From contig DITE01000007.1 of the NCBI GenBank assembly GCA_002422725.1, forward strand, positions 10,957 through 74,956: a DNA stretch of 64,000 bases, given 5' to 3'. The DNA comes from Bacteroidales bacterium UBA6192 (GTDB lineage: Bacteria > Bacteroidota > Bacteroidia > Bacteroidales > F082). The position numbers were made by a program, and so were the translations under genes. This document shows, in pieces, positions 1 through 15,409 of this stretch (the first letter of the stretch is position 1; each line of letters starts with the position of its first letter). The notes under the pieces were generated by a model. It saw only the letters and a program-made list of their open reading frames with translations. It was not told where the DNA came from and did no database searches.

Positions 1-351
1 TTTTTTTTGCACTTGCCCTCTCTCACTCACAAGTCTTATTGCTTCAGGAAGTTCTTCTGAAAGCCAGTGGTTGAATCCGGTCATCCCAATGGTTTTGGCA
101 ACAAAGGGCTGGGCATTGACTATCAGGAAACTTCCTTTTACCTGATGCAGTTCCTTGCTGATCCGGACCAGTGACCTGATTCCCGCCGAACTCAGAAAAG
201 CCATATCTCGGGCATCGATGATGAGTTGATGGTGGCCGCTGCGGATATGATCGAGCAGGGTGTCGGCGAAATAATCAGACCAGGACGCGTCAAGCCTGCC
301 ATCAACTTTAATAATTAAATAATCGCCAATATTTTCATCTGTCAGTTGCAT
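1..351 (-). CDS. STAS-domain protein (SpoIIAA/RsbV-like anti-sigma-factor antagonist), partial, open to the window edge
   Basis: Hand translation from the ATG at 349-351 (minus) gives MQLTDENIGDYLIIKVDGRLDASWSDYFADTLLDHIRSGHHQLIIDARDMAFLSSAGIRSLVRISKELHQVKGSFLIVNAQPFVAKTIGMTGFNHWL... with no stop before position 1, which is why it is absent from the ORF track. The 'DxxxxxFLSSAGIRSLV' context is STAS-like. It starts 2 nt after the stop of the upstream gene. Confidence 0.7.
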   Translation of the reverse strand, partial: MQLTDENIGDYLIIKVDGRLDASWSDYFADTLLDHIRSGHHQLIIDARDMAFLSSAGIRSLVRISKELHQVKGSFLIVNAQPFVAKTIGMTGFNHWLSEELPEAIRLVSERGQVQKK

Positions 352-353
352 AA

Positions 354-3260
354 TTACTTTTGCTTTTCGTTGGTAAAAACAATGGCTTTTTTCAGAAAAT
401 CCTCCGTAAACAATAGATTGTGTTTTTTTGACAGTTCCGGGTTATAGATCAGTTTTTCTGACTGGGTATTACTAAATGGTATATTAGCCGGGTTTTCGCC
501 CCGAAGCACACGCACAGCTTTTTCGGCCGCTTCGAGTCCGGCATCATAGTAATCCCTCGCCAAACAAACTACTCCTCCTTCGCGCATCTGATCGCTGTCG
601 AAAACATAAACAGGCAGGTTGCTTTCAGCAGCTTTTCGTGCAATAAGTGCAAATCCAGGCCGGGTCATGTTGTCTACTATCTGACAAACCAACTGGATAT
701 CCTGACGGCAAAGCTCAGAAGTTGCCTGGGTGAGATCGGCACTGGAAGTTACCGGAATACTTACCAATCCTATTCCAAGCTTTTCAAGCTCCTGCTTAAA
801 CCAGTCTCTATACAGGACACTGTTGATTTCGGCCGGTGTAAACAATGTACCAACCTTTTTAACCTGGGGAATTGTTTCTTTAATCAGCTTTGCCATTCCA
901 TCAAAAGGCGATCGTGTGGTAATCCCGGTTACATTGGGCAAATGATCTGTTTCGCTCTTGCCGGCTCCTGCCTTAACAGCATCGCCAACACCTGTGAACA
1001 CTATTTTGGTATCCTCACCAGCTTGTCGAAGAGCCGCCTGTAAACTTGGAGTTGAAATAACCATCAGTAAATCAACCCTGTCCGATTTTACTGTTGTCAT
1101 AATGCTCGACAAGGTTGTCATATCGCCCTGGGCATTGAAAACCCTCAAATCATAATCTGTTCCCTCAGTAAGTCCGGCTTTTTTAATTCCATCTATTAAG
1201 CCTTCGTGGCACCGCTCGGCAAACTCAGTATCGCTATAATGAACTATCCTGAGTTTATGTCGTTTCTTCACCGGGCTGAAAGCATTTGATTTCGGCTCAA
1301 TGCGTTGCTGAACTTCAGTTTCCGTAATAGGTAATTGCGAAGGATGTACACCGGCAATAATTTTTGCAGCCAACTTTCCCGATTGTTTGCCCCATTCAAA
1401 AAAACTATCGCCATAAGCACCTGTAGCTCCCTGAGCAACAAGTTGAGGTTCGGTTGCAAAAATCGGAATGTTGGCTGAACTGGCAACCCTTAGGATTGAT
1501 TTGAAGCCTGTTGTAACCAGATTGTCGGCCGACACAATGATGGCTTTTGCACCTCTCTGAATAATGGCCTGAGTTGCCATCGTCAGTTCGGTGACATTGG
1601 TTGCTGTAGCCTCGATTACCTTAATGTTTTTGTATTTTCCGGCGATACGTAGTTTTTCGACAGAAAGAACAGAATTCATCTGAGCAGCATCGTAAACAAT
1701 ACCTACCGCTTTAAGGTCCGGAATATAATCCATTGCCATCTGAAGCAAATCAGCCACTGGTGGATTATCGTGAACACCGCAAACGTTTGACGGGCGGCCA
1801 TGGTTAAACATTTTCAGTTTCACCGGATCGCTGGTTACGGTAAGCACGACAGGTATATCGGTAACCCTGTTTACGACTGCCATCATCACAGGTGTAGTCA
1901 CCGTTACGATTACATCGGGTTTTTCGCGCACAACAGCATCAATAATAGACGATAACTGTCCGATTTCGCCCTGAGCACTGAATTTTTTCATTATATAGTC
2001 CGTGCCTGGCTGCAGGCCACTCCATTGCAGTCCGCTTTCGACTCCCTCAGCGGCTTCTTCAAGTGAGCTGTTCTCGACAAGTGTGATCAGGGACACTTTT
2101 GCAACACCTCCTTTGTAAAGCGCAACATGATGAAATAAATCTGCTTCCCGGATCATTGCTTCTGTTGGCTCAATTCCTTGTTGTTTAAGTTCAGCAAAGT
2201 CAATCGCAACACGATCAACCTCAGTCACTGATTGTTGATCAGCCAACCGGGCCTCAGTAAGCGGGCTCATTTTCCAGCTATTTCCGAGTGACGCCAACAA
2301 TGGCCTGTTCAGGTTCAGTTCTTCGGGGACAACATTTTCGATACGGAATTCGGATGGGCTTTTCCCTTCGAGGATAGCAATAGCGAGATCGGCTGTGTAT
2401 TGTCCAACGGTGAAATAGTTTGCTCCAAGGCCAAAAAGAGCTTCCCTTTCAACATCAGCAGGATCGTTAGTAAAAACCGGTACACCTTTGCTTTTTGCCA
2501 TATTGACGATCATTCCGGATGATGCCGTAGCCACGGTGTCGCCTCCGATCCATATGGCTTCGACCCCTTTGGAAAGCAAGGACCGTGTAGCCTCCGACAC
2601 TTCAGAAGTGTTGGTTGCGATTGCCTCGACCAGCTCTATTCCAAGTTCTTTGCAAATGATGCGGGCTTCGCCCAGGCAAGCTTCGGAGCATTGTTCGCCG
2701 GGATTCCACACAACGCCCACCCTTTTGATTGACGGGTTGAGTTCACGTAGTATTCTGAATGCATTCTGAACGGGCTGAAAAGTACCGATACCAGCCATAT
2801 ACGAAGGGTGCTGGTTCTTATCGGGGCCACTGATGCCTGCCCCGGTTCCGTAAGGATCGGTAACTGCCCCAAAAACATGTAGTTTTCCTGCACTTTGATT
2901 GGCTTTGGAAAAAACCTGCAATGCCACAGTACTCGACGTAATGGCCATTTTATACGGTCCGTTGACAATTTCACGGGCAATGGTGTTTGCCGTACTGAAA
3001 TCGCCTTGTGGATTAAATTGCCGAATGTTGGATCGGTCGGGTGCCACATAATTTTTTGACTGTAAACGGTCTATCACCCCGGCAACATGTGCATCCAGAA
3101 GGGGTGTAGACGAAATCTGCATAATGGCTATTGAAGGATAATCACGCTTTGTTTCTGTTTGCTTGCTTTGTCGCTGTTTCAAATCAGAAAGCAACAATAT
3201 CGCTGAAGTACCGAGTATAAGAACAATTGCCAGCCACAGGTCTTTGATGATGCTCTTCAT
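354..3260 (-). CDS. Membrane-anchored protein with three tandem ABC-transporter substrate-binding-like domains (ABC_sub_bind type)
   Basis: 968-aa ORF. It has one N-terminal hydrophobic helix (LWLAIVLILGTSAILLL) followed by three similar ~290-aa modules, starting near residues 40, 380 and 665. Each module has the same layout: beta-strand run, 'NAQGD/SAQGE/NPQGD', then '...KRVGVVWNP / KAVGIVYD / KKVGTLFTP'. There is no permease or ATPase gene nearby. Confidence 0.6.
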   Translation of the reverse strand: MKSIIKDLWLAIVLILGTSAILLLSDLKQRQSKQTETKRDYPSIAIMQISSTPLLDAHVAGVIDRLQSKNYVAPDRSNIRQFNPQGDFSTANTIAREIVNGPYKMAITSSTVALQVFSKANQSAGKLHVFGAVTDPYGTGAGISGPDKNQHPSYMAGIGTFQPVQNAFRILRELNPSIKRVGVVWNPGEQCSEACLGEARIICKELGIELVEAIATNTSEVSEATRSLLSKGVEAIWIGGDTVATASSGMIVNMAKSKGVPVFTNDPADVEREALFGLGANYFTVGQYTADLAIAILEGKSPSEFRIENVVPEELNLNRPLLASLGNSWKMSPLTEARLADQQSVTEVDRVAIDFAELKQQGIEPTEAMIREADLFHHVALYKGGVAKVSLITLVENSSLEEAAEGVESGLQWSGLQPGTDYIMKKFSAQGEIGQLSSIIDAVVREKPDVIVTVTTPVMMAVVNRVTDIPVVLTVTSDPVKLKMFNHGRPSNVCGVHDNPPVADLLQMAMDYIPDLKAVGIVYDAAQMNSVLSVEKLRIAGKYKNIKVIEATATNVTELTMATQAIIQRGAKAIIVSADNLVTTGFKSILRVASSANIPIFATEPQLVAQGATGAYGDSFFEWGKQSGKLAAKIIAGVHPSQLPITETEVQQRIEPKSNAFSPVKKRHKLRIVHYSDTEFAERCHEGLIDGIKKAGLTEGTDYDLRVFNAQGDMTTLSSIMTTVKSDRVDLLMVISTPSLQAALRQAGEDTKIVFTGVGDAVKAGAGKSETDHLPNVTGITTRSPFDGMAKLIKETIPQVKKVGTLFTPAEINSVLYRDWFKQELEKLGIGLVSIPVTSSADLTQATSELCRQDIQLVCQIVDNMTRPGFALIARKAAESNLPVYVFDSDQMREGGVVCLARDYYDAGLEAAEKAVRVLRGENPANIPFSNTQSEKLIYNPELSKKHNLLFTEDFLKKAIVFTNEKQK

Positions 3261-3326
3261 ACTGCTTTGTTTTATAAGGATTGACTGTTTGATATTTTTT
3301 ATTCCCTGAAAACCAATGGGAAAACA

Positions 3327-3755
3327 CTATCCCTCCAAAGATTTAGTTAATTCCAACACATTCAAATTGTTGATTCGATGATAGTTCACACCATCCATCA
3401 TTTTTCTCATGAAAAAAATGCCTAGTCCTCCAATTGACCTGTCCTCAGCAGTCAGGGTAACATCGGGATCATCCTGCAAGGTTGGATCAAACTCTTTCCC
3501 ATCATCGATGATCTTAATGATCAGATGACCTCCTGCTTTTTCGAGGGTGATTTCAATCTGATGAACAAGTGAATCGTCGTAAGCGTAATTCACCACATTC
3601 GTAAAAGCCTCTTCAATCACGAGGTTCAGCGTCATGGTGACTGCAAGGGGTATTTCCAGCTCATCGCCCATTTCCTCAAGAAAAAGGCTTATTTTTTCCA
3701 ATTCCTCCAGTTTGTTTTGTAGCCTGAGTGATTTGATATTTTTGTTTTTATCCAT
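3327..3755 (-). CDS. RsbW/SpoIIAB-like anti-sigma regulatory factor (Ser/Thr kinase, HATPase_c_2 type)
   Basis: 142 aa. N-box-like 'EEAFTNVVNYAY', 'IIDDGKEFDP' and 'GGLGIFFMRKMMDGVNY' match the small GHKL anti-sigma kinase layout. Confidence 0.7.
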   Translation of the reverse strand: MDKNKNIKSLRLQNKLEELEKISLFLEEMGDELEIPLAVTMTLNLVIEEAFTNVVNYAYDDSLVHQIEITLEKAGGHLIIKIIDDGKEFDPTLQDDPDVTLTAEDRSIGGLGIFFMRKMMDGVNYHRINNLNVLELTKSLEG

Positions 3756-3844
3756 CGTTTCAGATTGTTTTCATGAGAAAAATTGAAAATTGTTTCGTTT
3801 TATCTATCTTCAATATTGATATTAACGTCTAAAATTAAGAAATT

Positions 3845-6793
3845 TTAATTTCCTAACAACTTCACCGAAAACATCCATTGTTCCAGAGGGAGAACACTCT
3901 CTTCAAATTTACGCGCATAGCCTGCTGACCAGGTAGTTTTCAGGTATGAAAACAATACCAGTTCCAGGTCGACCTGCATACCGGCATTGAAAACATTTCG
4001 CCGGCTGATCTCATCATCCGGATTAAGCAAGGCATGGGTTCCAAACAAGGATGTTTTTATGTAAGTTGGATACAGCCAGGTAGTCCCGACATTGCGCAAG
4101 CGAATGGGTTTTAAGTTGAGTTCGCCCATGGTTTTGACAAAATTATAGGCTGACAGCGCATCGATGCCAACCCCCGGAAAAGCAAGGATCTTACGGTATT
4201 GATCCGCATGTTGCCAGTCGATATAGTTGTTTCTGAATCCCCCAAAATAGAATGAGGAAAATGAAGACCCTTTTTTGCCAAAGGATTGTCCTACACTGTT
4301 TCTTATCCAAAAACTCGTATTCCTGACAACAGGAACCAAAAATCCAATATGCTGCTCCGAAACCAACGAAGGATAAAGATTTCCATTAGCCAGATAGCTA
4401 TACGCAATCAGGTTCCACAAATATCCTTTTTCATCATCAACACCCCCCAGCGTACGCCTTAATTTTGTGACACCTATATCGGCCGACAAACTCTGAAAAT
4501 TCCTTATCGCTGTGGAAACATTTTGAAACTGAGGCAACACTTCCAGATCACCATAATGGGTTAAACTGAAACCGTAGTTTGTCTTTAACGGAGATTTGAG
4601 TGTAGATGATTTCTTGTAGCCTATGCCTACCGAATAGCCGGCTCTGCTTCGTTTGGTTGGCCCAAAAAGGTCGTAAAAATCGGTCTTGTTATAATTTGCC
4701 TGAAGATTCCATAACCAATAGTCCCATTGCAATTGTCCGTGAAATTTCTGCTTATCGGGAGAGGTACTCCAAGGTGAAGTCCCCAGGAATAAACTCAGAT
4801 TCGATATACCAACCCTGTCGCGCCAATTGAGCCGATAGCCGATCGCAATCGTTTCCTTGTATCCGGTAATATCGGGATAGGCTCCGGTGAGTGACATGTT
4901 TTTAATGGGCACATAGGCGGTTTCTTCGGTTTTTAGTGAATCAATATTCACTTTTGAGGCCGGAGGAAGCGAATAGTCGCCAATATGCGGACTTTTATCA
5001 TAAGCCAGGTTACCCAGGTAATTTATGGAATTGGCTTCGGTGATAACCTTCATGGGAATCACCCCGGGCCACATGCCATTTCGATAAAATTTGAGCACAA
5101 ACAAGGAGTCTTCACCAATTTGCTGTGGCATAAAAAGTCCGCTTTCGTCGTTAGAGAGCAATTCAAACGACTTATCTTCAAAGGAAAAACGCCAGATATT
5201 GGAAACCCCGGTATAGTATGAAATCCCCATCAGGAATCGGTCGTCTTGCGAAAAACGGAATTGTGTCAAGGTGTTGTCTTCTAACTTTATAAGCGTTTCA
5301 AATTCCTTGACGCCTATTTCCAGATCGGCCAGTTTAAAAAGAATAAGCGATTGTTCGCCACGTATACCTGTGAGGGAGGCTGTTAACTTAGTACCATCAT
5401 TGGAAATGGAAAGGTCGAGCATCGATCTGCCAAAATCGGTGGTATACATTGGAATGATTTCGGTGTAAGGTTCCGGAATCTTGACCAGCGTAGCATATCC
5501 ATTGTCATGTTTCACTCCCCAAATACTCCGGTCAACCGGGTTGAAGGTAAGATTGCCGGTGCGCGAAAGCGGAATGAGGGTTTCTTTCTTCCCGGATGAA
5601 ACATCAATTTTCACCAAACTCCGATATTTTCCATTCTGTTCGGTGATGAAAATTTGTTGATTGTGAGGATCATATGCAAGGTAAGTAACCGAATACAGCA
5701 TAGGGGAATCAAGTACGGCTATTTTTTTGAGTTTGCCCGTGCGGAGGTTCAGTTCAGCAATATGTGAAATCTGCCCCGGATGATTGATCGCGGCATACAT
5801 TTTCATCTCCTTTTTATCGAATCCGACGGTTGAAAAACTGCCAAGAGGTTCTGTAGTGAGTGGCCGGAACGATGTCAAAGGAAAATCCTTTACCTTATTG
5901 AGGTTTTGTTGTTGAAAATCTGTTTCAAAATTGATCCATTCGTCCCATGCATGCTGCACATTCTTGCCGAATACTTTCCGAAACTGGGCGGCATAAAAGG
6001 CTTTACTCCCATCGGTGCGATCATAAAGTTCCTTAATCTTCTCGTCTCCATAAGCCTGAGCCAGATAGGTTACAAAGCGTGTTCCATACAGGTAGGCATT
6101 TGCACCCACCTGAAAATCAACTGTCGATCCTTCTGTTTCCAACCCGACCACTGAATACAGCGGATAACCTTCGTTTATTATACTGCGGAAGTACATTTCG
6201 TCGTATGGACCCAATGCTCTTCCCAGTCCTCCCGACGTCCAGGTTTCGAGGTAGCAGGCAATGCCTTCGTGATACCAGCGCGGGGCATACCATCGCGGTG
6301 TGGTAAGATAGCTCCAGAAAGCGGTCGTAGGTACTTTTTCGTCCCGGGCAACTTTACCGAACAAGACTTTACGCCAAAACATATCTGATTTGTTGGGCTT
6401 GTCGGCCAGGGTAATATGGGTAAGCTCGTGGGCAAACAGCCATTGAAAACGTTCACTTGACGGAGTAATGCTAAAGGCAAAATTGAAGGGTGAAACGCCA
6501 AGAATAATCATGTTGTAAGGCATTACAATGGCTCCGCCATGACCATCGTCTTCAAAATCGGTGAGCATCACATACGTCATCTTGTGCGGATAATTCCAAT
6601 GTGCCTTATGGAAATCAAGGGCATTATGGAAGGTACGCGCCACATGAGGCATGAGATAGCTATATCGTTTCCCGAAATAGATCAGTTCCATCTCATCCGT
6701 TTTGAAACGGTTAATTTTTTGGCTAAAAAGAAAGCCTGATGTCCCTATATAAAGAAACACCAGGAATACAAAACGGGTGAAAATGTATGTCAT
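3845..6793 (-). CDS. Large envelope protein: N-terminal HExxH metallopeptidase-like domain, central beta-propeller-like region, C-terminal beta-rich (possible outer-membrane barrel) region
   Basis: 982 aa with an N-terminal signal/anchor. 'LFAHELTHITL' is a HExxH motif and 'WYHEGIACYLE' lies downstream. The middle region has TolB/WD40-like strand repeats. The C-terminal ~350 aa is rich in alternating aromatic/Gly strands and ends '...MFSVKLLGN'. Confidence 0.45.
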   Translation of the reverse strand: MTYIFTRFVFLVFLYIGTSGFLFSQKINRFKTDEMELIYFGKRYSYLMPHVARTFHNALDFHKAHWNYPHKMTYVMLTDFEDDGHGGAIVMPYNMIILGVSPFNFAFSITPSSERFQWLFAHELTHITLADKPNKSDMFWRKVLFGKVARDEKVPTTAFWSYLTTPRWYAPRWYHEGIACYLETWTSGGLGRALGPYDEMYFRSIINEGYPLYSVVGLETEGSTVDFQVGANAYLYGTRFVTYLAQAYGDEKIKELYDRTDGSKAFYAAQFRKVFGKNVQHAWDEWINFETDFQQQNLNKVKDFPLTSFRPLTTEPLGSFSTVGFDKKEMKMYAAINHPGQISHIAELNLRTGKLKKIAVLDSPMLYSVTYLAYDPHNQQIFITEQNGKYRSLVKIDVSSGKKETLIPLSRTGNLTFNPVDRSIWGVKHDNGYATLVKIPEPYTEIIPMYTTDFGRSMLDLSISNDGTKLTASLTGIRGEQSLILFKLADLEIGVKEFETLIKLEDNTLTQFRFSQDDRFLMGISYYTGVSNIWRFSFEDKSFELLSNDESGLFMPQQIGEDSLFVLKFYRNGMWPGVIPMKVITEANSINYLGNLAYDKSPHIGDYSLPPASKVNIDSLKTEETAYVPIKNMSLTGAYPDITGYKETIAIGYRLNWRDRVGISNLSLFLGTSPWSTSPDKQKFHGQLQWDYWLWNLQANYNKTDFYDLFGPTKRSRAGYSVGIGYKKSSTLKSPLKTNYGFSLTHYGDLEVLPQFQNVSTAIRNFQSLSADIGVTKLRRTLGGVDDEKGYLWNLIAYSYLANGNLYPSLVSEQHIGFLVPVVRNTSFWIRNSVGQSFGKKGSSFSSFYFGGFRNNYIDWQHADQYRKILAFPGVGIDALSAYNFVKTMGELNLKPIRLRNVGTTWLYPTYIKTSLFGTHALLNPDDEISRRNVFNAGMQVDLELVLFSYLKTTWSAGYARKFEESVLPLEQWMFSVKLLGN

Positions 6794-6900
6794 CTGCTAT
6801 GTTTTTTTACCAAGAATGCATAAAAGAAATTGTATGTTACTTTAATATTTCTTTACATAAAATTCTCAAGCGAATTCACCGGAAGGGTGTTGTCGCCTGC

Positions 6901-7920
6901 TCACCAACTTCGCAATTGCTCGCTATCGGTAAAGCCTGTTCTTAAATTCTCCATGTCACCAAAATAAAGACCTAGTCTGGCTTCATTCATAAAGTCATTT
7001 AACACTTCATGATCGCTAAGGTCTGGAATATTCAATATGGTTTCTGATCCACCCATGAACTCTGATAAAAGCCGACTATTGATTGCTTGCAGTCTTTCCA
7101 CATCCAAAAATATGACTGTATTTAGCCTTTCTGAATCAACAATTATTGGAAACTCAATTCCAAGTGTTACGGTCTCTAAGGAAAGCTGATCCCTGAAGGC
7201 TGATTTTAATTGCATTTCGGCAACCAATTCTTTCATTCCTTCTTGCTCGTTCTTGAGTTTCTTTTTGTCGAGATAACTCAATACGGGTTTGTTCTGGGAC
7301 AGAATTGCAGATTGCATGATGTTTAATGCCAGGATATCATGGGCATCTTCCAGTTCGGGATACTGAACGTCAGGGTTTGCCTCAGTGAAGGTAGCAATGG
7401 CATTCATATAACTCATGAGGATGTCATCGTGGTTGCGGATTCGGGCAATGGCATTCTGAGCCTGATTGAGATAGGTAATCACCGGAACATTTTCGTTACT
7501 GTCGAGTGAAACAACCAGGTTAAGGGCATACAACACGTCCTTTCGTGCTGTTTCGAGGTAAACCTTGAAACTGTTCAATGCATTGTAATATGGATGGTAA
7601 ATCTTATCAAACTCCTCCACTTTAATGGTTCTGCTAAGCACCATATCCACATCAGAGGCGTTTTTAATCGACAGGTAGTAATAATACAGCAGATACTTTT
7701 CATACTGAGCACGCTTCACGGTGTCTTCAACAAGTTCGTTTCGCAGCAATATGTCGTCCTCCGTGATTTTTACATTCCGGAAACGGTCAACTTTACCGAT
7801 TGATCCTGCCAGATCCTCATTGCTTGTTTTCGGAATATCAACAAATAGGGCAATAAGAACACCAATGATCAGGCTAAGTACTGCTAAGAGTACCGTCTGC
7901 AATACAGTGAATTTTTTCAT
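6901..7920 (-). CDS. Membrane-anchored protein of unknown function, paralog B
   Basis: 339 aa with an N-terminal TM helix. The first ~225 residues are near-identical to the 7977-8996 product. The C-terminal third diverges and carries SERL/VERLQ/MENLR/SEQLR motifs. Confidence 0.6.
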   Translation of the reverse strand: MKKFTVLQTVLLAVLSLIIGVLIALFVDIPKTSNEDLAGSIGKVDRFRNVKITEDDILLRNELVEDTVKRAQYEKYLLYYYYLSIKNASDVDMVLSRTIKVEEFDKIYHPYYNALNSFKVYLETARKDVLYALNLVVSLDSNENVPVITYLNQAQNAIARIRNHDDILMSYMNAIATFTEANPDVQYPELEDAHDILALNIMQSAILSQNKPVLSYLDKKKLKNEQEGMKELVAEMQLKSAFRDQLSLETVTLGIEFPIIVDSERLNTVIFLDVERLQAINSRLLSEFMGGSETILNIPDLSDHEVLNDFMNEARLGLYFGDMENLRTGFTDSEQLRSW

Positions 7921-7976
7921 TGTTTAAAGGGATAAGTTTAAAACTATATAAAGTTGTTCCTTAAAGTGAAGTGGAT

Positions 7977-8996
7977 CTACCTTAGATTCTCACTACTGTT
8001 AAAAAAAGAGCCAATTTGCTCCATGTCAGATACGAAAAAACCTAGTCCTTTGGTTTCGCTCATAAATGCCTGAAGTTGTTCCTGATTGCTAAGGTTCGAC
8101 ATGTTTTGCAAGGCTTCTGATCCCAAAAATGCAATTGAATTGAATTGCTCCATATTATTTAACACAAAACCCTGCAATTGCTCCATGTTGCGCACAATTA
8201 AACTTGCCCCCAGCAATTGTTCATTATTTACCAGGGCGAGTCTTTCAGCATCAAAGGCAAACTGATCCATCATCGCATCATTCAGATTATTTTCAGAAGC
8301 AAGCTGCTTGATTTCTTCCTTCCCGTTCATCAGTTTCTTCTTGTCCAGATAATTCAATACAGGTTTGTTCTGGGACAGAATGGCTGACTGCATGATGTTC
8401 AATGCCAGGATATCGTGGGCATCTTGCAGTGCAGGATATTGAACACCCGGGTTTGCCTCAATAAAGGTGGCAATGGCATCCATATAATTCATGAGGATGT
8501 CGTCGTGGTTGCGGATTCGGGCAATGGCATTCTGGGCCTGATTGAGATAGGCAATCACCGGAACATTTTCGTTGTCGTCAATTGAAAGAATCAGGTTAAG
8601 GGCAAATAAAATATCGGTACGGGCAGTCCCGAGATACACTTTGAAATTACTCAATGCATCATAATAGGGATGGTAAGATTTATCAAACTCCTCAACGGTA
8701 ATCGTTTTGCTCAGCACAAGTTCCACATCGGAAGTTGTTTTTAAGGACTGATAATAATAATACAGCAGATACTTCTCGTATTGAGCACGTTTGACGGTGT
8801 CATCCGCAAGTTCGTTGCGCAGCAGAATGTCGTCCTCGGTAATTTTAACATTCCGGAAACGGTCAACCTTACCAATTGTTCCGGCAAGATCTTCACCCGA
8901 AGGTGGCTCACTTTTGGTGGCAAAGCCAATGATAAATCCAACCACCAATGAGGCGAAGGCAATGATAATGATTTGGGTTAAGCTTACTTTTTTCAT
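7977..8996 (-). CDS. Membrane-anchored protein of unknown function, paralog A
   Basis: 339 aa and the same architecture as paralog B. The C-terminal third contains repeated NNEQL/NMEQL/NMEQF/NQEQL/DMEQI motifs. Confidence 0.6.
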   Translation of the reverse strand: MKKVSLTQIIIIAFASLVVGFIIGFATKSEPPSGEDLAGTIGKVDRFRNVKITEDDILLRNELADDTVKRAQYEKYLLYYYYQSLKTTSDVELVLSKTITVEEFDKSYHPYYDALSNFKVYLGTARTDILFALNLILSIDDNENVPVIAYLNQAQNAIARIRNHDDILMNYMDAIATFIEANPGVQYPALQDAHDILALNIMQSAILSQNKPVLNYLDKKKLMNGKEEIKQLASENNLNDAMMDQFAFDAERLALVNNEQLLGASLIVRNMEQLQGFVLNNMEQFNSIAFLGSEALQNMSNLSNQEQLQAFMSETKGLGFFVSDMEQIGSFFNSSENLR

Positions 8997-9070
8997 GTTT
9001 GAGAGTTTTATGGGTTTTACTTTGATTTAATTTCTTTCCTTTAATTATAGTTATGCAGACAAAAAGTTGG

Positions 9071-9829
9071 CTATTTTTCCAAAAAAAGTTGTTTCATTGT
9101 CAAAACTGATTGATTTTGTGATGCTTTTATATTTATAGCCTTTTGTTGATCCTGTTTCTTCTCGAGGACAATTTGAAAAGTGGTGATTCCCGATGCAGTA
9201 AAATAAACCGATCCGGGATCAAAACTACTTGAGCGCGCCCCATCGGCAGAAATATAGTCAGCGGTTTTCAGTAAAAAGTCTGATTCATCAAAAGTCACCT
9301 CCAGCAGCACCTCATTTTTAGCATCGATCATGAAATTCAGGTAGTTCAACTGGCCAATCTGATAAGGCACCATCGTGATCATTGCCTGGTTGTTAACATA
9401 TGATAAACCCTGCTTCGGGCTGGCAACCATGCTGCCCGAAAGCAATTCGGTGTTTGGTTTGGAGCTCTCCGCAAAAAAAATCCAGGAAAAGGTAAACCCT
9501 ATTAATATTCCAACAGTCATAATGAATGCAAAGCGCACAGGAGCCGGTCGGTAAAGGCCGCCGAAGGGGTTCTGTAAAGGAGATACTGTGCTGTTGCGCT
9601 GGCTTCCGTTAACAATTTTCTGCATTACTGAACCCGACACATCAATTGACTCTTGTGTCTGCAGCTGTGAATTCAGTTTGTTTTCGATGTCGAGCAAACG
9701 CAAAAATGCTTCGCGCTCTTTGTCGGAAGCATCGAGCATCTTGTTCAGTACTTCCTCCTCATCCGGAGTAATTAATCCGGCGATTTTTGCTCTCTTAAGC
9801 TTATTTAATTTTCTGTTTCTGAACCACAT
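9071..9829 (-). CDS. Putative single-pass anti-sigma factor (non-ZAS)
   Basis: 252 aa, 28 nt downstream of the ECF sigma gene. It has a short charged N-terminal region, one TM helix (FAFIMTVGILIGFTFSWIFF) and a ~125-aa extracytoplasmic domain. No HxxxCxxC motif is present. The call rests mainly on position and topology. Confidence 0.5.
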   Translation of the reverse strand: MWFRNRKLNKLKRAKIAGLITPDEEEVLNKMLDASDKEREAFLRLLDIENKLNSQLQTQESIDVSGSVMQKIVNGSQRNSTVSPLQNPFGGLYRPAPVRFAFIMTVGILIGFTFSWIFFAESSKPNTELLSGSMVASPKQGLSYVNNQAMITMVPYQIGQLNYLNFMIDAKNEVLLEVTFDESDFLLKTADYISADGARSSSFDPGSVYFTASGITTFQIVLEKKQDQQKAINIKASQNQSVLTMKQLFLEK

Positions 9830-9857
9830 GATACAAAATATTTATCTTTAAGGGCAA

Positions 9858-10448
9858 TCAATAATAACCCGATTCCTCCAGTTTCTCCTTCAGTTGCAAA
9901 CGTGCGTCATACAGGCGCGATCTGACTTTTTTCTCCGGAATTTCCAGTGCAAATGCTATCTCTCTGTAAGATAGTTGTTGGTAATATTTCAAAACGACCA
10001 CAGCTTTATATTGATTTTTCAGTTGGTCCACGGCTTTCTTCATCAGGGCATCCGTTTCGGACTTTTGTTCATCTGTTTCAGCCGACATATTGATTAATTG
10101 TTCCATTCCAACATACTTTTTTTTCTTCTTCAGATGATTCAATGCCATATTGATTGCAATCCGGTACAACCAACTAAAAAACCTGTGGGAAAACCGGAAA
10201 GTTGGCAGCGCTTCGTAGGCCTTTACAAAAACAGCCTGAGTCATTTCTTTCGCCTCTTCCCTATCATGCAACATCCGCAGAAAAAGATTGTAAACCGGAA
10301 CCTGATACCTGTTAACCAATATTGCGTAATCATTGACAGATCCATGAATTACCATCCTGATGATGTCATAATCCTCTTCATCCATCGGTTGATTTCTGCT
10401 CTCTTTCTGCAGGGTGTTGTATATGTTATTTTCCTCCGTTTTCACCAA
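9858..10448 (-). CDS. ECF-type RNA polymerase sigma-70 family factor
   Basis: Region-2-like 'YQVPVYNLFLRMLHDREEAKEMTQAVFVKAYEAL' and region-4-like 'LSYREIAFALEIPEKKVRSRLYDARLQLKEKL'. The track start at 10448 is TTG. An in-frame ATG at 10385 would give a more typical 175 aa. Confidence 0.8.
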   Translation of the reverse strand: MVKTEENNIYNTLQKESRNQPMDEEDYDIIRMVIHGSVNDYAILVNRYQVPVYNLFLRMLHDREEAKEMTQAVFVKAYEALPTFRFSHRFFSWLYRIAINMALNHLKKKKKYVGMEQLINMSAETDEQKSETDALMKKAVDQLKNQYKAVVVLKYYQQLSYREIAFALEIPEKKVRSRLYDARLQLKEKLEESGYY

Positions 10449-10485
10449 TTACCATTTAGGTTGTTAAAAGTTGGTTTTCTTCTGA

Positions 10486-11481
10486 TTAATTTTTTAATTG
10501 ATTTAGTTTCCAGATTTCCCGATGTTTCATTCTTACCAGCGGTTGCAATGCCAGTTCTCCAATTTTTCCAATTTGCCTGCGCAGTTGTTTCAATTCTTCG
10601 AGTTTGGCACCAATATCAGGTTCAACAATCAGCGGAAACCCATTCTCCTTTAGCATCATGTTGCGCTTGGCTTTGATGCTAAGTTCCAGATAAACACTGA
10701 TATAATTGTAGAGATCGACTATTGCCTCGGAGCTAAAGTGTTTTCGTAATGACATCAAGTAATCCCCGGCTTTCGTGTGGGCAAATTTACCCTGCTGCAT
10801 CATCCTTAGCAACTCCACTTCATGGCTGAACTCAATTTCGAGCCAATCCTGCAAACTGTTGTTGCTCTTTTGAAAAACAAGCATAAATACGAGTGGTAAC
10901 ACAATAAAAATAAGCGCTGTTTGGATATATGGGTTCAAAAAGAAATGATTGAAACCACTATGCAGTATTATGGCTGTTAAAAAACCCGGGATAACTGCCA
11001 GAATTAAATGCTTATCACGCTGTATGCCATCAATAAGAATGATAGCAAATAAAGCCGTGCAGCCGCCATGCATCAAGGCAGTGCCGAAACCACGAAGTAT
11101 CCAGACTACTAACCCTGGCTGATGACCAAGAGCAAACATATAAAAAACGTTTTCGGCCAGCGCAAAACCTGCTCCTGCGGCAAAACCATAGACAGCTGCA
11201 TCCACTGCAAAGCCAATCTTTTTCCTGCTGATCAGAAAAAATACAATGAGTATTTTGCTCAGTTCTTCGGTAATCGGAGCAAGATAACGGCTGAATGTTG
11301 CAAAACCAATTGTCAGCTGACTGTTCAGCCATGTGTTGAGGTAATATGAAATCAATGCTGAAATCACTCCCCAGAATATGCATAATCCAAGCCTGCTTTT
11401 GCTCACCAGTTTAAAACTGTCGAGCAGAAACAAACCTGTTAAAAACAGTAAAACCGGCAAAATACTGAACACGATATGCAT
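10486..11481 (-). CDS. PrsW-family intramembrane metalloprotease with a C-terminal cytoplasmic extension
   Basis: Polytopic membrane protein with 'ITEELSKILIV' (EExxK), 'GFALAENVFY' and 'ALMHGGCTALFA'. I prefer the ATG at 11481 (MHIVFSILPVLL...) because the longer track ORF (to 11574) overlaps the upstream STAS gene. The last ~130 aa are soluble and of unknown function. Confidence 0.7.
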   Translation of the reverse strand: MHIVFSILPVLLFLTGLFLLDSFKLVSKSRLGLCIFWGVISALISYYLNTWLNSQLTIGFATFSRYLAPITEELSKILIVFFLISRKKIGFAVDAAVYGFAAGAGFALAENVFYMFALGHQPGLVVWILRGFGTALMHGGCTALFAIILIDGIQRDKHLILAVIPGFLTAIILHSGFNHFFLNPYIQTALIFIVLPLVFMLVFQKSNNSLQDWLEIEFSHEVELLRMMQQGKFAHTKAGDYLMSLRKHFSSEAIVDLYNYISVYLELSIKAKRNMMLKENGFPLIVEPDIGAKLEELKQLRRQIGKIGELALQPLVRMKHREIWKLNQLKN

Positions 11482-11509
11482 GATCAGGAAGGCTTTGTGA
11501 TCATGATTG

Positions 11510-11836
11510 TTACTGGGATGCTGACTGCAGGTCAGGATAAATGGCAAATATGCTTGAAAAACCCGAAATATCAAATATTTCGCGAATGGTGGGCTGCAAA
11601 TTGCACAGCCTTAGTTTGCCTGCTGTAGCGGTTAGTTTTTTCTGAGCCATTAAAAACACCCTAAGGCCCGAACTGCTGATGTAATCGAGCTGGCTGCAAT
11701 CGACCACCAAATGGGCATGTTTTTCGGTCAATGGTAAAAGACTGGCTTCAAATTCACCAGCCGTGATGGTGTCGATGCGCCCCTGAACCCCAATAATGGC
11801 CGTGTTGCCTGAAATTGTTACGTTTACTTTCATCAT
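11510..11836 (-). CDS. STAS-domain anti-sigma-factor antagonist (SpoIIAA/RsbV-like)
   Basis: 108 aa. 'VVDCSQLDYISSSGLRVFLMAQKKL' is a typical STAS phosphorylation-loop context. Confidence 0.75.
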   Translation of the reverse strand: MMKVNVTISGNTAIIGVQGRIDTITAGEFEASLLPLTEKHAHLVVDCSQLDYISSSGLRVFLMAQKKLTATAGKLRLCNLQPTIREIFDISGFSSIFAIYPDLQSASQ

Positions 11837-12397
11837 CTTTAATTTTTGTGTTGGATATAAAGGATAGATATTAATGAATGCAATGGATTTGAATCTGGGT
11901 TACTCATAAAAATATACCAACAAATTATTTGATAATCAATTATTTGATCAGAGATAGTTTGTATATTTACAATGAATAAATCTATCATTCACAGAAATTA
12001 CACAACTCCTCTAAGCTTTTAAACTGAAAATCTGTCGAAAGTTAAGGAAAAAAATCTGGTTTCCTACTAAATACACCAATTAGTTTGAAAGAAATATTTG
12101 GCAATTGGTATGTCAGTTGATTTGTTCTTACCTGCCCAAGACGTTTTACGGATTGGTTGAGTTACAATAAGGGGGGGCAAGCTGGAGTTTATGCCGGAGG
12201 ACGAGCGGGTGAACACCTGAATTTAAGCGATAGTTCCTATTCAATTTAGTCGTAATGAAATCTGCATTTCGCAATGAATATTTCATCGTCTTTCACTTTA
12301 TATCAGTCTGTGTTCAACATCAATTCTGTTTGTCTTGTGTGCAGCACTTTTGCAGCCTATCAAAATTAAACATTATTCTCACCTCCAACATATTGCT

Positions 12398-13600
12398 TTA
12401 ATTGATTAATAATTTCTGTCTAAGTTTTGATCCATTTGTGACGAATTCTATAACATACATACCCTGTTTAACCGAGGAAATATCTATCATATTTGATTGT
12501 ATTTCTTTGTGGAGAACATTTTTCCATAGACAATCATAGATGTTTAATTCTTTAAAGGATTCGATGTCTTCTGTTTTAATAAAAAGCTTATTGGTAGCCG
12601 GGTTGGGATAAAAAACAACTTCATGTTGGGCAATATTCTCATAAATTGTTACAGGTTCTAAAGTTCTGAATAAGTCTGCATAAACGAAATATGAAACGGC
12701 ATATAGTTGACCTTCCGGGTGAAAAGCTACACCCTGAAAGTACTTTCCGGTCCAATTTGGAGTTACTTCATTCCATGTCATGCCATTATCATAAGTGCTG
12801 AAAATCCCATTTTCACTTGCTGCAGCAACTTCATCATACTCATTTATCGATAATGATAAAATATAATGGTTATACAATACAATATTCCAGGTTTGGCCAT
12901 CGTCAACTGATTTGTAAATTCTACCCGTACCCATTGTCCAGTGGCCTTTTGTTCCGGCATAAATCTCATTTTCTGAGGTTGTAACAATAGAGGAAACAAA
13001 ATGGTAATTCAAACCAGCCAAATACCAAGTTGATCCACCATCGTCTGATTTATATATACCACCAGGGCTTACATCTCCGTTATAACTAATGCTACCCGCA
13101 AAAAGACTTCCTGAGGTATTTCCAGTTATGGATTCTACAGATTCAGTGTTAGACAAATCCAGAACTTCTGTCCAGCTTACTCCTCCATCAGTTGAGCGAA
13201 ATATACCACCAAAGTTTCCAAAGAAGATATAGCCATTTTCAGATTCATATATGGAAATAATATTAGATGCTTCTTCCGTGATATAGAGCAAATCCCAACT
13301 ATTGTTGCCTTCGTATTTAAATATACCTGAACCTGTACCGGCAAACAAATTGCCTGAAGTAGAAACATGAATACTCCAAATCGGATATTGTCCAAGCCCA
13401 ATGTATTCCCAGCTTGCGCAATGATCATTTGAATGATACACCCCATTGCCTGTCGCAAGATAGATATCATTGCCATAAAAACAGATTGTCCCTGCCCCAA
13501 TTGTGTCGGGTAATGTCACCTGTTCCCAGTTGTATTGCGCATATGCGGTCAATTGAGTAATTATGATAAGGCTTAGAAATATGTATTTTACAGTTTTCAT
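12398..13600 (-). CDS. BNR/sortilin-like beta-propeller protein with T9SS C-terminal sorting domain, tandem copy 1
   Basis: Repeated SxDxGxxW-type motifs (STDGGVSW, SDDGGSTW, VDDGQTW, YDNGMTW). C-terminal 'VVFYPNPATNKLFIKTED...GMYVIEF...KLLIN'. I prefer the ATG at 13600 (MKTVKYIF..., signal peptide) over the track start at 13645. Confidence 0.75.
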   Translation of the reverse strand: MKTVKYIFLSLIIITQLTAYAQYNWEQVTLPDTIGAGTICFYGNDIYLATGNGVYHSNDHCASWEYIGLGQYPIWSIHVSTSGNLFAGTGSGIFKYEGNNSWDLLYITEEASNIISIYESENGYIFFGNFGGIFRSTDGGVSWTEVLDLSNTESVESITGNTSGSLFAGSISYNGDVSPGGIYKSDDGGSTWYLAGLNYHFVSSIVTTSENEIYAGTKGHWTMGTGRIYKSVDDGQTWNIVLYNHYILSLSINEYDEVAAASENGIFSTYDNGMTWNEVTPNWTGKYFQGVAFHPEGQLYAVSYFVYADLFRTLEPVTIYENIAQHEVVFYPNPATNKLFIKTEDIESFKELNIYDCLWKNVLHKEIQSNMIDISSVKQGMYVIEFVTNGSKLRQKLLIN

Positions 13601-13642
13601 ATCAATTCTGTTTTTCTTGTGCTCAGTACTTTTACAGCCTAT

Positions 13643-13650
13643 CAAAATTA
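13643..13650 (-). promoter_or_regulatory. Bacteroidota-type -7 promoter box TAATTTTG upstream of BNR/T9SS copy 1
   Basis: It matches the TAnnTTTG consensus and lies ~43 nt upstream of the ATG at 13600. The identical box is at 14925-14932 upstream of copy 2, with orphan copies at 12361-12368 and 15898-15905. Confidence 0.4.
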
Positions 13651-15097: not shown

Positions 15098-15409
15098 TTA
15101 TTTTATTTCTATTCCAGTTTTCACTATTTCATAAACAAAAGGATTGTCCGAAAGAAAATCTTGTCTGGATAAAGGATGCGGTTCAATCCTAGAATCGAAC
15201 TTTGCGGCTAATAACATTAATTGAACTTGTATATCAAATTTGTCAGAATCCCTGAGATTATCAATAATCAATGCAATATCAATATCACTTTCAGGTCTTT
15301 GATTGTTTTTAGCAAATGAACCAAAAAGATACGCAGTAACAAATCCTGGTGTCTGATTTGCTACGCTTGAAATATATTGCCGAATTATTGAATCAGTTCT
15401 TTTATCCAT
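15098..15409 (-). CDS. Minimal nucleotidyltransferase (MNT-type antitoxin-like)
   Basis: 103 aa. 'YLFGSFAKNNQRPESDIDIALII' matches the GSx(n)DxD nucleotidyltransferase signature. It overlaps the upstream HEPN gene by 25 nt. Confidence 0.75.
   Translation of the reverse strand: MDKRTDSIIRQYISSVANQTPGFVTAYLFGSFAKNNQRPESDIDIALIIDNLRDSDKFDIQVQLMLLAAKFDSRIEPHPLSRQDFLSDNPFVYEIVKTGIEIK

Follow-up and report, generated by a model that had tools for sequence, protein, structure and literature searches.

Three linked, conserved Bacteroidales modules, rather than a single circuit around one ECF sigma factor, make up a 12-gene string

Several described systems resemble parts of the gene string considered here. 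In the sigmaE (RpoE) system of Escherichia coli, an envelope signal leads to degradation of the anti-sigma factor, the site-1 protease is DegS, and the genes controlled encode quality-control factors of the outer membrane and periplasm; the sigmaE promoter consensus is GGAACTT-N16-TCAAA. Bacillus subtilis has the sigmaW/RsiW/PrsW/RasP system of regulated intramembrane proteolysis. Cytoplasmic STAS domains that serve transporters are represented by the C-terminal STAS domain of SulP/SLC26 proteins and by MlaB, the STAS accessory of the MlaFEDB ABC system. In the RsbU-RsbV-RsbW partner switch, RsbW-family proteins act as anti-sigma factors in Firmicutes (PMC8256260); in Chlamydia trachomatis the set comprises an RsbU with a periplasmic sensor, RsbW, RsbV1 and RsbV2, and a sigmaB-type target is absent (PMC8256260). 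A search of the accessible literature brought up no account of a composite cluster such as the present one, and the initial annotation had likewise been unable to match it to a described system.

Within the 64-kb window (the whole stretch of DNA that was analysed), ten ORFs lie on the minus strand, taken from the ORF list except for the tenth, which comes from translating positions 1-351. The gaps computed from their coordinates are 28, 37, 28, 74, 56, 107, 89, 66 and 2 nt, the first of which presupposes that PrsW starts at ATG 11481 and not at the upstream TTG 11574. This arrangement agrees with the initial annotation, and every domain assignment stands. The initial annotation had suggested that a PP2C phosphatase may lie past the left edge. 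The string is longer than the window shows: contig L001, identical to window positions 1-7456 (0 mismatches over 7,456 nt), completes the tenth gene truncated by the window edge (full product 408 aa) and carries, co-directionally past it, a BPD_transp_2 permease gene (313 aa) and an ABC ATPase gene (270 aa), bringing the string therefore to 12 genes; the rest of the tenth gene and these two lie at L001:7106-10075. The phosphatase is not among them. L002 and L003 share this 12-gene order, as does L014 apart from two additional genes.

Comparison of 160 related loci, in which the modules recur in shuffled order with adjacency kept, establishes that the string is made of three linked modules conserved in many Bacteroidales and is not a single circuit around one sigma factor. 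Module 1 contains PrsW, an optional ECF sigma/anti-sigma pair, one to four par genes and the gene of a 982-aa envelope protein; module 2 an optional NMT1-type binding protein and dCache-PP2C phosphatase, followed by RsbW and STAS; and module 3 a binding protein, a STAS fusion, a permease and an ATPase.

The switch of module 1 consists of a PrsW-family intramembrane protease (331 aa; 10486..11481, minus strand; Pfam PrsW-protease, 78 bits), an ECF sigma factor (9858..10448, minus strand; Pfam Sigma70_r2 and Sigma70_r4_2) and a single-pass anti-sigma factor (252 aa; 9071..9829, minus strand), whose gene invariably comes after the sigma gene at the loci compared. PrsW combines a membrane core of ~200 aa with a ~125-aa subfamily-specific C-terminal domain, and both this domain and the EExxK, FxxxEN, MHGG and HxxxN motifs are conserved among 57 homologs. 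The C-terminal domain is found only as a PrsW fusion (349 clusters), is confined to this PrsW subfamily and is predicted by the positive-inside rule to be cytoplasmic. SigW (3e-31) and RpoE (1e-30) are the top NCBIfam matches of the sigma factor, both under the equivalog cutoffs; the scores of the sigma factor and of PrsW lie far under the SigW and PrsW cutoffs, respectively. The sigma ORF is listed as 196 aa from TTG 10448, a codon that falls within a conserved promoter-like -10 element, and ATG 10385 (175 aa) is more likely to be the true start.

The anti-sigma factor has an RsiW-like N-terminal anti-sigma domain, crosses the membrane once at about residues 98-120 and continues into a ~130-aa periplasmic domain. 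Despite zero Pfam support, its assignment is confirmed by the match of a profile of 22 homologs to the anti-sigma-W factor RsiW (PDB 5wuq_C; E 9.1e-8, profile positions 8-79). The NCBIfam matches, the RsiW profile and the intact catalytic motifs of PrsW thus bear out a sigmaW/RsiW/PrsW-like switch. Unlike in B. subtilis, prsW here adjoins the sigma/anti-sigma genes and carries the extra C-terminal domain, the anti-sigma factor is devoid of the HxxxCxxC zinc motif, the window shows no site-2 protease gene, and the host is a didermic member of the Bacteroidales in which the predicted regulon is an outer-membrane protease set. The logic recalls that of sigmaE, but the site-1 protease would be PrsW instead of DegS, RseB is absent, and the effector joins predicted gluzincin, propeller and barrel in a combination not previously described.

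The predicted regulon follows from an ECF-type promoter-like motif of the form CCAACTTTT-N13-TAnTT. The window holds exactly two perfect matches, both on the coding strand: P1 (CCAACTTTTAACAACCTAAATGGTAATT; 10447..10474, minus strand) in the gap between PrsW and sigma, a predicted autoregulatory promoter, and P2 (CCAACTTTTTGTCTGCATAACTATAATT; 9043..9070, minus strand) in the gap between anti-sigma and parA, which begins immediately past the anti-sigma stop codon, 74 nt ahead of the parA ATG. The AAC-containing -35 of the predicted autoregulatory promoter is shared with the sigmaW system, from which the TAnTT -10 differs (CGTA there); the geometry also resembles that of sigmaE, with AAC followed by TT and 18 nt from AAC to the -10. 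Upstream of the sigma gene the motif is present at 31 of 32 sigma-containing loci, as a conserved block visible in the alignment. Upstream of the first par gene it was found at 27/31 sigma-containing loci and 0/25 sigma-less ones (Fisher p 4e-12, a value that overstates independence because the loci compared share phylogeny). About 57 of 73 bipartite motif matches in 2.3 Mb sit at P1 or P2 positions. Given this placement and the strict co-occurrence of the motif with the sigma gene, the sigma factor probably autoregulates and drives the par genes and the 982-aa gene. With two such conserved motifs within the string, it is unlikely that all ten genes are transcribed as a single unit. Intergenic terminator-like sites are absent from the minus strand.

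Downstream of P2 lie parA (339 aa; 7977..8996, minus strand), whose product starts with a signal anchor, followed by a conserved ~220-aa domain and a tail that is variable and repeat-like, and parB (6901..7920, minus strand). At 60% identity (E 1e-136) the two are the paralogs they had been taken for. ParA has no match in Pfam or NCBIfam, and each of its 88 homologs carries the annotation hypothetical. At the loci compared, one to four par copies stand in tandem, always directly 5' of the 982-aa gene (3845..6793, minus strand). The product of the latter combines a signal peptide with a predicted clan-MA-like gluzincin domain (HELTH at 122-126, E176), a TolB-like propeller at about 310-580 and a predicted ~16-strand beta-barrel at about 620-982. 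All of 22 homologs keep H122, E123, H126 and E176 unchanged, and sub-threshold Pfam matches were obtained to Peptidase_MA_2 (10/22) and Omp85_2 (8/22). An AF2 model of medium confidence (pLDDT 73.9) gave a Foldseek match to TolB (E 2e-9), the protein that the central six-bladed propeller resembles most. The HExxH, propeller and barrel reading made from the sequence is consistent with all of this. The barrel and its weak Omp85_2 matches point to the Omp85/BamA-TamA superfamily, from which the protein differs in having no POTRA domains and a zinc peptidase-like domain at its N-terminus. Its homologs number over 3,100, every one of them hypothetical, and occur in 233 species-level genomes; no solved structure exists among its sequence-level relatives.

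Module 2 is represented in the window by a GHKL serine kinase of the RsbW/SpoIIAB type (142 aa; 3327..3755, minus strand; Pfam HATPase_c_2, 84 bits), whose N, G1 and G2 ATP-binding boxes are conserved in 47 homologs, and by STAS1 (108 aa; 11510..11836, minus strand), a single-domain STAS protein of the anti-sigma-factor-antagonist type (Pfam STAS, 83 bits; NCBIfam ant_ant_sig, 85 bits with a cutoff of 53.45). The phosphorylatable serine motif of STAS1, YISSSGL, is conserved in 46 homologs. STAS1 is found directly 3' of RsbW at 22 loci, directly 5' of PrsW at 10, and directly 3' of the 982-aa gene at 4 loci without a nearby RsbW. In relatives a PP2C gene is the upstream neighbour of RsbW in 38 of 54 cases, and the downstream neighbour is STAS1 (21 cases) or a binding protein (21 cases). 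The 982-aa gene on one side and RsbW on the other enclose this PP2C, a membrane phosphatase of dCache-HAMP-PP2C architecture, along with an NMT1-type binding protein; it is not found past the left edge, as had been thought possible, and no PP2C gene is present at the window locus, elsewhere in the 64 kb or to the left in L001. A reversible switch in the window lineage would therefore need a phosphatase encoded elsewhere. The kinase, the two STAS proteins with phospho-serine kept, the relatives' periplasmic Cache-type sensor with HAMP-like linker and the lack of a sigmaB-type target are all reminiscent of Chlamydia. Departures from RsbU-RsbV-RsbW are the fusion of one STAS to an acetolactate-decarboxylase-like domain within an ABC-importer operon, the NMT1-type binding protein beside the relatives' phosphatase and the absence of that phosphatase here.

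The initial annotation placed partner switching around the ECF sigma factor. On such a reading RsbW would be a second, cytoplasmic anti-sigma factor, and partner switching and PrsW proteolysis would converge on one sigma factor. The anti-sigma role of the family in Firmicutes (PMC8256260), the single co-directional string of the window and the lack of a nearby group-3 sigma as alternative target at the Bacteroidales loci compared would fit such wiring, but we regard it as highly improbable. The sigma factor has its own dedicated RsiW-like anti-sigma factor; RsbW never adjoins the sigma gene in the neighbourhoods of related loci; the sigma/anti-sigma pair is absent at 17 of 37 well-flanked loci; and RsbW/STAS1 are kept at at least 12 loci without the pair, among them L018, L019, L021, L022, L036, L056, L057 and L059. 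RsbW moreover accompanies the importer with no 982-aa or sigma gene nearby at L082, L092 and L097; at the first of these RsbW stands with the genes for binding protein, STAS fusion, permease and ATPase, and a 982-aa gene is absent from the 10 kb around. It is the ABC importer that the partner-switch genes follow, and not the sigma factor.

The importer of module 3 begins with a membrane-anchored binding protein of three tandem PF04392 substrate-binding domains (968 aa; 354..3260, minus strand; Pfam ABC_sub_bind, 447 bits in 3 stretches), the gene of which directly precedes that of the STAS fusion, STASX, in 78 of 96 cases. STASX (first 117 codons at 1..351, minus strand; Pfam STAS, 63 bits) is not the second stand-alone STAS protein it first seemed but a 408-aa fusion subunit, encoded within the importer operon, of STAS and an acetolactate-decarboxylase-like domain. 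In Foldseek searches with its AF2 model (pLDDT 85.7), the N-terminal part corresponds to SpoIIAA/RsbV and the C-terminal part to ALDC (1xv2, 6j3d, 5xne, 4bt3), a fold-level likeness (TM 0.5-0.58, about 9% identity) in which only the HxH motif of the metal triad remains. The FLSSAGIR motif is invariant and keeps the phospho-serine. STASX recalls the STAS accessories of transporters in being a cytoplasmic STAS protein encoded alongside a transporter to which it presumably binds, and the STAS profile weakly matches SLC26 STAS domains; in contrast to these and to MlaB, STASX is of the SpoIIAA/RsbV type with a kinase-target serine, is linked to an RsbW kinase and a PP2C phosphatase, and belongs to a PF04392/BPD_transp_2-type binding-protein-dependent importer.

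These properties also bear on a nutritional reading, which we find very doubtful, whereby the 982-aa protease breaks down proteins at the surface or in the periplasm, the importer brings in the aromatic amino acids or peptides so released, STAS/RsbW do no more than adjust transport and the ECF switch has only to turn on the set. The predicted catalytic residues of the 982-aa protein are invariant, a binding-protein or NMT1-type gene directly follows the 982-aa gene at 22 loci, and P2 would co-induce protease and importer in the window. The family of the binding protein includes the tryptophan binding protein TrpX, but the TrpX score sums three domains and is therefore not an equivalog call. 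The importer is, moreover, absent within 10 kb at most 982-aa-centred loci, and PrsW and par are left without a role.

How tightly the modules are linked was assessed at 37 loci that have the 982-aa gene at their centre and no less than 9 kb of flank to either side: PrsW occurs at 33, par at 36, the sigma gene at 20, STAS1 (within 10 kb) at 20, and RsbW and the STAS fusion at 14 each, while a partner-switch gene is absent within 10 kb at about 45%. Around the STAS fusion, 12 of 16 loci have a partner-switch gene and 5 a 982-aa gene. Dozens of species carry the components together. It is conceivable, if fairly unlikely, that ECF stress switch, partner switch and amino-acid-type importer are unrelated neighbours with at most co-transcription between them, given that every module also occurs without the others, that inter-module order and orientation vary and that importer and STAS fusion together form a self-contained unit in 80/80 metagenome loci. 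The linkage of STAS1 to the 982-aa gene is nevertheless far over chance for the few STAS/RsbW genes of a genome of about 4 Mb, and the ECF-type motif stands ahead of partner-switch genes at three loci (L029, L064 and L075). Adjacencies persist through many different rearrangements in the various families (RsbW-STAS1-PrsW, 982-STAS1, 982-SBP323-PP2C-RsbW and a divergent RsbW-STAS1-PrsW beside par-982), a classic signature of functional coupling. The co-occurrence noted at the outset is kept among Bacteroidales families despite rearrangement.

On balance, we lean towards the view that in this string three conserved Bacteroidales modules, all acting on one envelope process, have become fused in a lineage-specific manner. 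Gene content, homologies, conserved catalytic and phospho-site motifs, conserved neighbourhoods and the promoter motif with its tie to the sigma gene are observed here, whereas all protein-protein contacts and cleavage events, the way the signal runs and the ligand are inferred. PrsW would make the site-1 cut on the RsiW-like anti-sigma factor, releasing the SigW/RpoE-like sigma factor, which would fire P1 for its own gene and P2 for parA-parB and the 982-aa gene, probably with read-through in the window into the RsbW and ABC importer genes. The main output would be the outer-membrane-anchored zinc protease/TolB-like propeller protein and its inner-membrane-anchored par partners, both seen as effectors and not as sensors. 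In module 2, the RsbW-like kinase and its antagonist STAS1 would form the partner switch, to which relatives add the ligand-sensing dCache-HAMP-PP2C and the NMT1-type binding protein that the window lineage does not have here. The STAS fusion is a candidate second RsbW substrate, and its acetolactate-decarboxylase-like domain may bind a small molecule. We propose that RsbW toggles between STAS1 and the STAS fusion, which would make the phosphorylation state of STAS1 depend on transporter or ligand status, and that STAS1 in turn acts on module 1, where the subfamily-specific, predicted cytoplasmic C-terminal domain of PrsW would be its most likely target.

The minus-strand gene string at the left end of the window (1-11836) consists of ten co-directional open reading frames, the tenth of which is cut by the left edge. 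They encode, in order, a 108-aa single-domain STAS protein (STAS1), a PrsW-like protease, an ECF sigma factor, its anti-sigma, two transmembrane proteins (parA and parB, together par), a 982-aa protein, an RsbW-like kinase, a 968-aa binding protein and a STAS fusion. Intergenic gaps recomputed from the ORF coordinates reproduced those of the initial annotation (28, 37, 28, 74, 56, 107, 89, 66 and 2 nt), the first gap of 28 nt requiring that PrsW starts at ATG 11481 and not at the upstream TTG. Its domain calls were upheld by Pfam, with two STAS proteins, a PrsW protease, Sigma70_r2 plus Sigma70_r4_2, HATPase_c_2 and three tandem ABC_sub_bind domains, and NCBIfam results agree with these calls; the two transmembrane proteins are true paralogs with 60% identity, as had been proposed. 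To the left, a Logan contig (L001) that is identical to window positions 1-7456 (0 mismatches) runs 9.3 kb further. There, the gene for the 408-aa STAS fusion, which starts 2 nt past the binding-protein gene, is followed by genes for a BPD_transp_2 permease (313 aa) and an ABC ATPase (270 aa); its stop overlaps the permease start, and the permease gene overlaps the ATPase gene. With these two genes beyond the left edge, the string comprises 12 genes, the last four of which form a PF04392-type ABC importer. Beyond the left edge lies also a convergent cluster (L001:10238-16629) encoding an HlyD-like protein, a Peptidase_C39 ABC exporter, a 421-aa unknown protein and a radical SAM/Fer4_12 enzyme, which looks like a RiPP/bacteriocin maturation and export set. 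Immediately upstream of the string are two tandem paralogs of 415 and 400 aa (12398-13645 and 13680-14882, both minus strand), each with a BNR/Sortilin-type propeller and a Por_Secre_tail, the sorting domain of type IX secretion. They are followed by overlapping Polbeta/NTP_transf_2 nucleotidyltransferase and HEPN genes resembling an MNT/HEPN toxin-antitoxin pair (15098-15409 and 15385-15789, minus strand) and by a 991-aa sensor kinase unrelated to the string (18294-21269, plus strand), whose Reg_prop, Y_Y_Y and His_kinase domains are typically seen in polysaccharide sensors of Bacteroidota.

More than 3,100 proteins are homologous to the 982-aa protein; every one carries a hypothetical annotation, and almost all belong to Bacteroidales. 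The protein is present in 233 species-level genomes. All twelve products and two genes found in relatives were mapped onto two sets of 80 loci each, one from genomes with the 982-aa gene at the centre and one from metagenomes with the STAS fusion at the centre; the components sorted into three modules. Module 1 runs from PrsW through an optional sigma/anti-sigma pair and one to four par copies to the 982-aa gene. Module 2 consists of RsbW, preceded optionally by an NMT1-type binding protein and a dCache-HAMP-PP2C phosphatase and followed optionally by STAS1; module 3 consists of the binding protein (one to three domains), STAS fusion, permease and ATPase, in this order. Among the 37 well-flanked 982-centred loci (at least 9 kb of flank on either side), par occurs in 36, PrsW in 33, sigma in 20, STAS1 in 20, RsbW in 14 and the STAS fusion in 14, while 12 of the 16 well-flanked STAS-fusion-centred loci carry a partner-switch gene and 5 of the 16 the 982-aa gene. 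The modules remain adjacent despite many orders and orientations (RsbW-STAS1-PrsW; 982-STAS1; 982-NMT1-PP2C-RsbW; RsbW directly followed by the binding protein), and this shuffling of order with retained adjacency argues for functional coupling rather than accident. The gene order of the window, for which a conservation check had been suggested, was found again in two related loci (L002 and L003) and likewise in a third (L014), there with an added NMT1-PP2C pair. Full-text literature searches on PrsW, STAS, partner switching, Bacteroidetes and PF04392 returned no description of the cluster, and a STAS/RsbW context is likewise missing from the ECF reclassification paper. The string is a genuine, conserved composite, undescribed in the literature searched, several members of which belong to generic families (ECF sigma, PrsW, STAS, RsbW and PF04392 importer). 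Prolixibacteraceae relatives carry two extra genes between the 982-aa gene and the NMT1-PP2C-RsbW-STAS1 set, encoding a 284-aa unknown and a 1010-aa ABC_tran/ABC2_membrane protein (L067:11369-15357; also L020, L023, L026, L034, L043 and L058). One 982-aa homolog (L015, PWMP01000093.1; 68% identity) comes from a 3.4-kb contig assigned to an Elusimicrobia bin; misbinning is the most likely reason, rather than a true occurrence outside Bacteroidota.

The sigma factor has the ECF layout, with Sigma70_r2 (54.5 bits) and Sigma70_r4_2 (49.2 bits) found by Pfam and region 3 absent. It is not a SigW equivalog, as its best NCBIfam match, the SigW model NF007223, has a cutoff of 209 bits and scores 108.6; RpoE models give similar scores, also sub-threshold. 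Pfam searches with single anti-sigma sequences gave only noise. When 22 orthologs were combined into a profile, positions 8-79 matched RsiW of B. subtilis in its cytoplasmic domain (PDB 5wuq_C, E 9.1e-8); one hydrophobic segment follows. The zinc motif HxxxCxxC is absent from the aligned anti-sigma N-termini, which show (L/I)..S..A where H..C..C is expected. PrsW matches PF13367 with 78 bits (cutoff 23.5) and conserves the EExxK, FxxxEN, MHGG and HxxxN motifs; with 27.6 bits where the cutoff is 225, it is no equivalog of the B. subtilis protein. Members of this PrsW subfamily carry a strongly conserved C-terminal domain of ~125 aa without counterpart outside the subfamily: searching 1.84 billion representative proteins recovered only PrsW-fused copies and no other architecture, and a sequence search of solved structures gave no match. 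By the positive-inside rule this domain should be cytoplasmic. Its presence fits the observation of Zhang et al. that fusion to cytoplasmic signalling domains is common among PrsW domains (PMC3482391).

We derived a bipartite motif, CCAACTTTT-N13-TAnTT, from a conserved block in the aligned regions upstream of the sigma gene. Exactly two perfect matches occur in the window, both on the coding (minus) strand, one before the sigma gene (P1, 10447-10474) and one before parA (P2, 9043-9070). Across the genome loci the motif lies upstream of the sigma gene in 31 of 32 cases, and it precedes the first par gene in 27 of 31 sigma-containing loci versus 0 of 25 sigma-less loci (Fisher p 4e-12, with kinship of the loci ignored). 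About 57 of the 73 matches in 2.3 Mb fall at these sigma/par positions. In this motif the -35 contains AAC and the -10 follows at a distance of 18 nt, features that we take to match RpoE-type promoters. We read P1 as the predicted promoter of the sigma factor itself and P2 as its predicted main target promoter, in which case the string would comprise at least three transcription units: STAS1-PrsW, sigma with anti-sigma, and parA onwards. No terminator-like site was found in the intergenic gaps of the string by a scan that itself performed at chance level, so P2 transcripts may reach the RsbW and importer genes. The listed TTG start of the sigma gene (10385-10448, minus strand) falls inside the conserved -10-like element of P1; translation probably begins at ATG 10385, which corresponds to residue 22 of that ORF and leaves a leader of ~55 nt. 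None of the generic scans, for sigma-70 promoters, for terminators or for the Bacteroidetes -7 motif TAnnTTTG, exceeded chance level, and they were uninformative. An AAC-N17-CGT site upstream of STAS1 (~12135-12165, minus strand) is conserved in no relative and was taken as chance. The same bipartite motif precedes partner-switch genes in three related loci (L029, L064 and L075). In two of these, L029 and L075, the PrsW-par-982 core is present twice in diverged form (~60% and 44% identity to the window protein); partner-switch genes and a CCAAC-N18-TAnTT motif stand in front of the second copy, which suggests that the sigma factor of copy 1 drives core copy 2.

The par proteins, encoded downstream of P2, begin with an anchor at the N-terminus, continue with a conserved domain of ~220 aa and end in a variable tail; they could be assigned to no known family. 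The possibility that they are truncated anti-sigmas was ruled out by sequence, as anti-sigma and par proteins share no similarity. In the AF2 model of the 982-aa protein (pLDDT 73.9, pTM 0.71), a signal peptide is followed by an alpha/beta domain, a TolB-like propeller and a barrel of ~16 strands. Within the alpha/beta domain, a candidate clan MA gluzincin domain, H122, E123, H126 and E176 (YHEGIACY) are invariant among homologs, an HExxH with a downstream Glu; Peptidase_MA_2 scores 20.4 bits, below its threshold of 32.4, and matches 10 of 22 homologs, likewise sub-threshold. The propeller matches TolB in Foldseek (E 2e-9); propeller matches dominate the search with the whole model, so that the peptidase and barrel domains are not separately matchable. 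On the barrel, Omp85_2 scores 17.2 bits (cutoff 23.1) and matches 8 of 22 homologs (best E 6.9e-5), again sub-threshold. POTRA domains are absent from the N-terminus, where the peptidase-like alpha/beta domain is followed by the TolB-like propeller, and a sequence search of solved structures with the family gave no match.

In the partner switch, the motifs YISSSGL of STAS1 (conserved) and FLSSAGIR of the STAS fusion (invariant) keep the phosphorylatable serine, and RsbW (HATPase_c_2, 83.7 bits) conserves its N, G1 and G2 boxes across 47 homologs. A PP2C phosphatase had been suggested to lie beyond the left edge; none is present in the 9.3 kb past the edge or in the 64-kb window, and tblastn with the phosphatase of a relative (L019) gave no match in the window or L001. 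In relatives, PP2C is directly upstream of RsbW in 38 of 54 cases, and L014 combines the window order with NMT1-PP2C between the 982-aa gene and RsbW, indicating that the window lineage lost or moved its phosphatase. The initial annotation placed both partner switching and PrsW proteolysis on one sigma factor. Only the second half of this is likely to hold: the putative PrsW proteolysis belongs to the sigma factor, and partner switching goes with the ABC importer. In 21 loci the binding-protein gene directly follows RsbW, and in one locus (L082) RsbW, binding protein, STAS fusion, permease and ATPase form a free-standing five-gene set; together with the neighbouring PP2C, this assigns the partner switch to the importer, not to the sigma factor. 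Judged by neighbourhood, the ECF sigma is unlikely to be the RsbW target, and no group-3 sigma is found nearby in the loci compared. Partner switching is instead tied by neighbourhood to the PrsW/982 core, with STAS1 being the component that most often adjoins PrsW or the 982-aa gene. Within the importer, the order binding protein, STAS fusion, permease, ATPase is kept in essentially all 80 metagenome loci. The TrpX model NF041285 scores 450 bits on the binding protein against a cutoff of 390, with three tandem domains adding up to this score. For the STAS fusion, the AF2 model (pLDDT 85.7) predicts a SpoIIAA/RsbV-like STAS domain and a 290-aa domain that structurally resembles only alpha-acetolactate decarboxylases (E 7e-5 to 6e-4, TM 0.51-0.58). 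By sequence it is not an acetolactate decarboxylase: there is no Pfam match, and HxH is kept with the third His position not conserved. Sequence comparison with solved structures matched through the STAS part only.

The homologies, conserved motifs, neighbourhoods and the link between motif and sigma gene established here can be assembled into a putative mechanism. PrsW would cut the RsiW-like anti-sigma, and the freed sigma would induce itself and par-982, plus the downstream genes in the window lineage. RsbW would switch partners between STAS1 and the STAS fusion, depending on the status of ligand or transport; where PP2C is present, RsbW would respond to periplasmic ligands too. Module 1 would receive feedback from STAS1, for which the C-terminal domain of PrsW is a possible route. 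A more specific proposal, which we consider rather improbable, is that the partner switch gates the intramembrane protease PrsW, with the STAS fusion reporting importer ligand status to the same kinase. Unphosphorylated STAS1 (or RsbW) would then bind the cytoplasmic PrsW C-terminal domain, and binding would control whether the RsiW-like anti-sigma, the par proteins or both are cut at site 1. If such gating were true, cytoplasmic metabolite or transport information would set the level of an outer-membrane protease via regulated proteolysis, representing a novel input to regulated intramembrane proteolysis and a novel non-sigma output of partner switching.

To our knowledge, Bacteroidota have no sigmaB- or sigmaF-type sigma factors that could be targets of their RsbW and STAS proteins. 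The systems closest to the cluster are the sigmaW/RsiW/PrsW pathway, the Chlamydia-type Rsb module, transporter STAS accessories and the RpoE envelope response. The Chlamydia-type module has a sensor PP2C and two STAS proteins and lacks sigmaB (PMC8256260). The cluster offers a conserved, testable context for RsbW and STAS proteins of Bacteroidota, namely an importer with a STAS subunit next to a PrsW-centred envelope module. Furthermore, for an ECF sigma outside Firmicutes that PrsW would control, it predicts a promoter and a regulon, which would be the second for this type of control. It also brings to light three widespread uncharacterised families (more than 200 species): the predicted outer-membrane protein with gluzincin-like domain, TolB-like propeller and barrel, its tandem par partners and the STAS-acetolactate-decarboxylase-like fusion.
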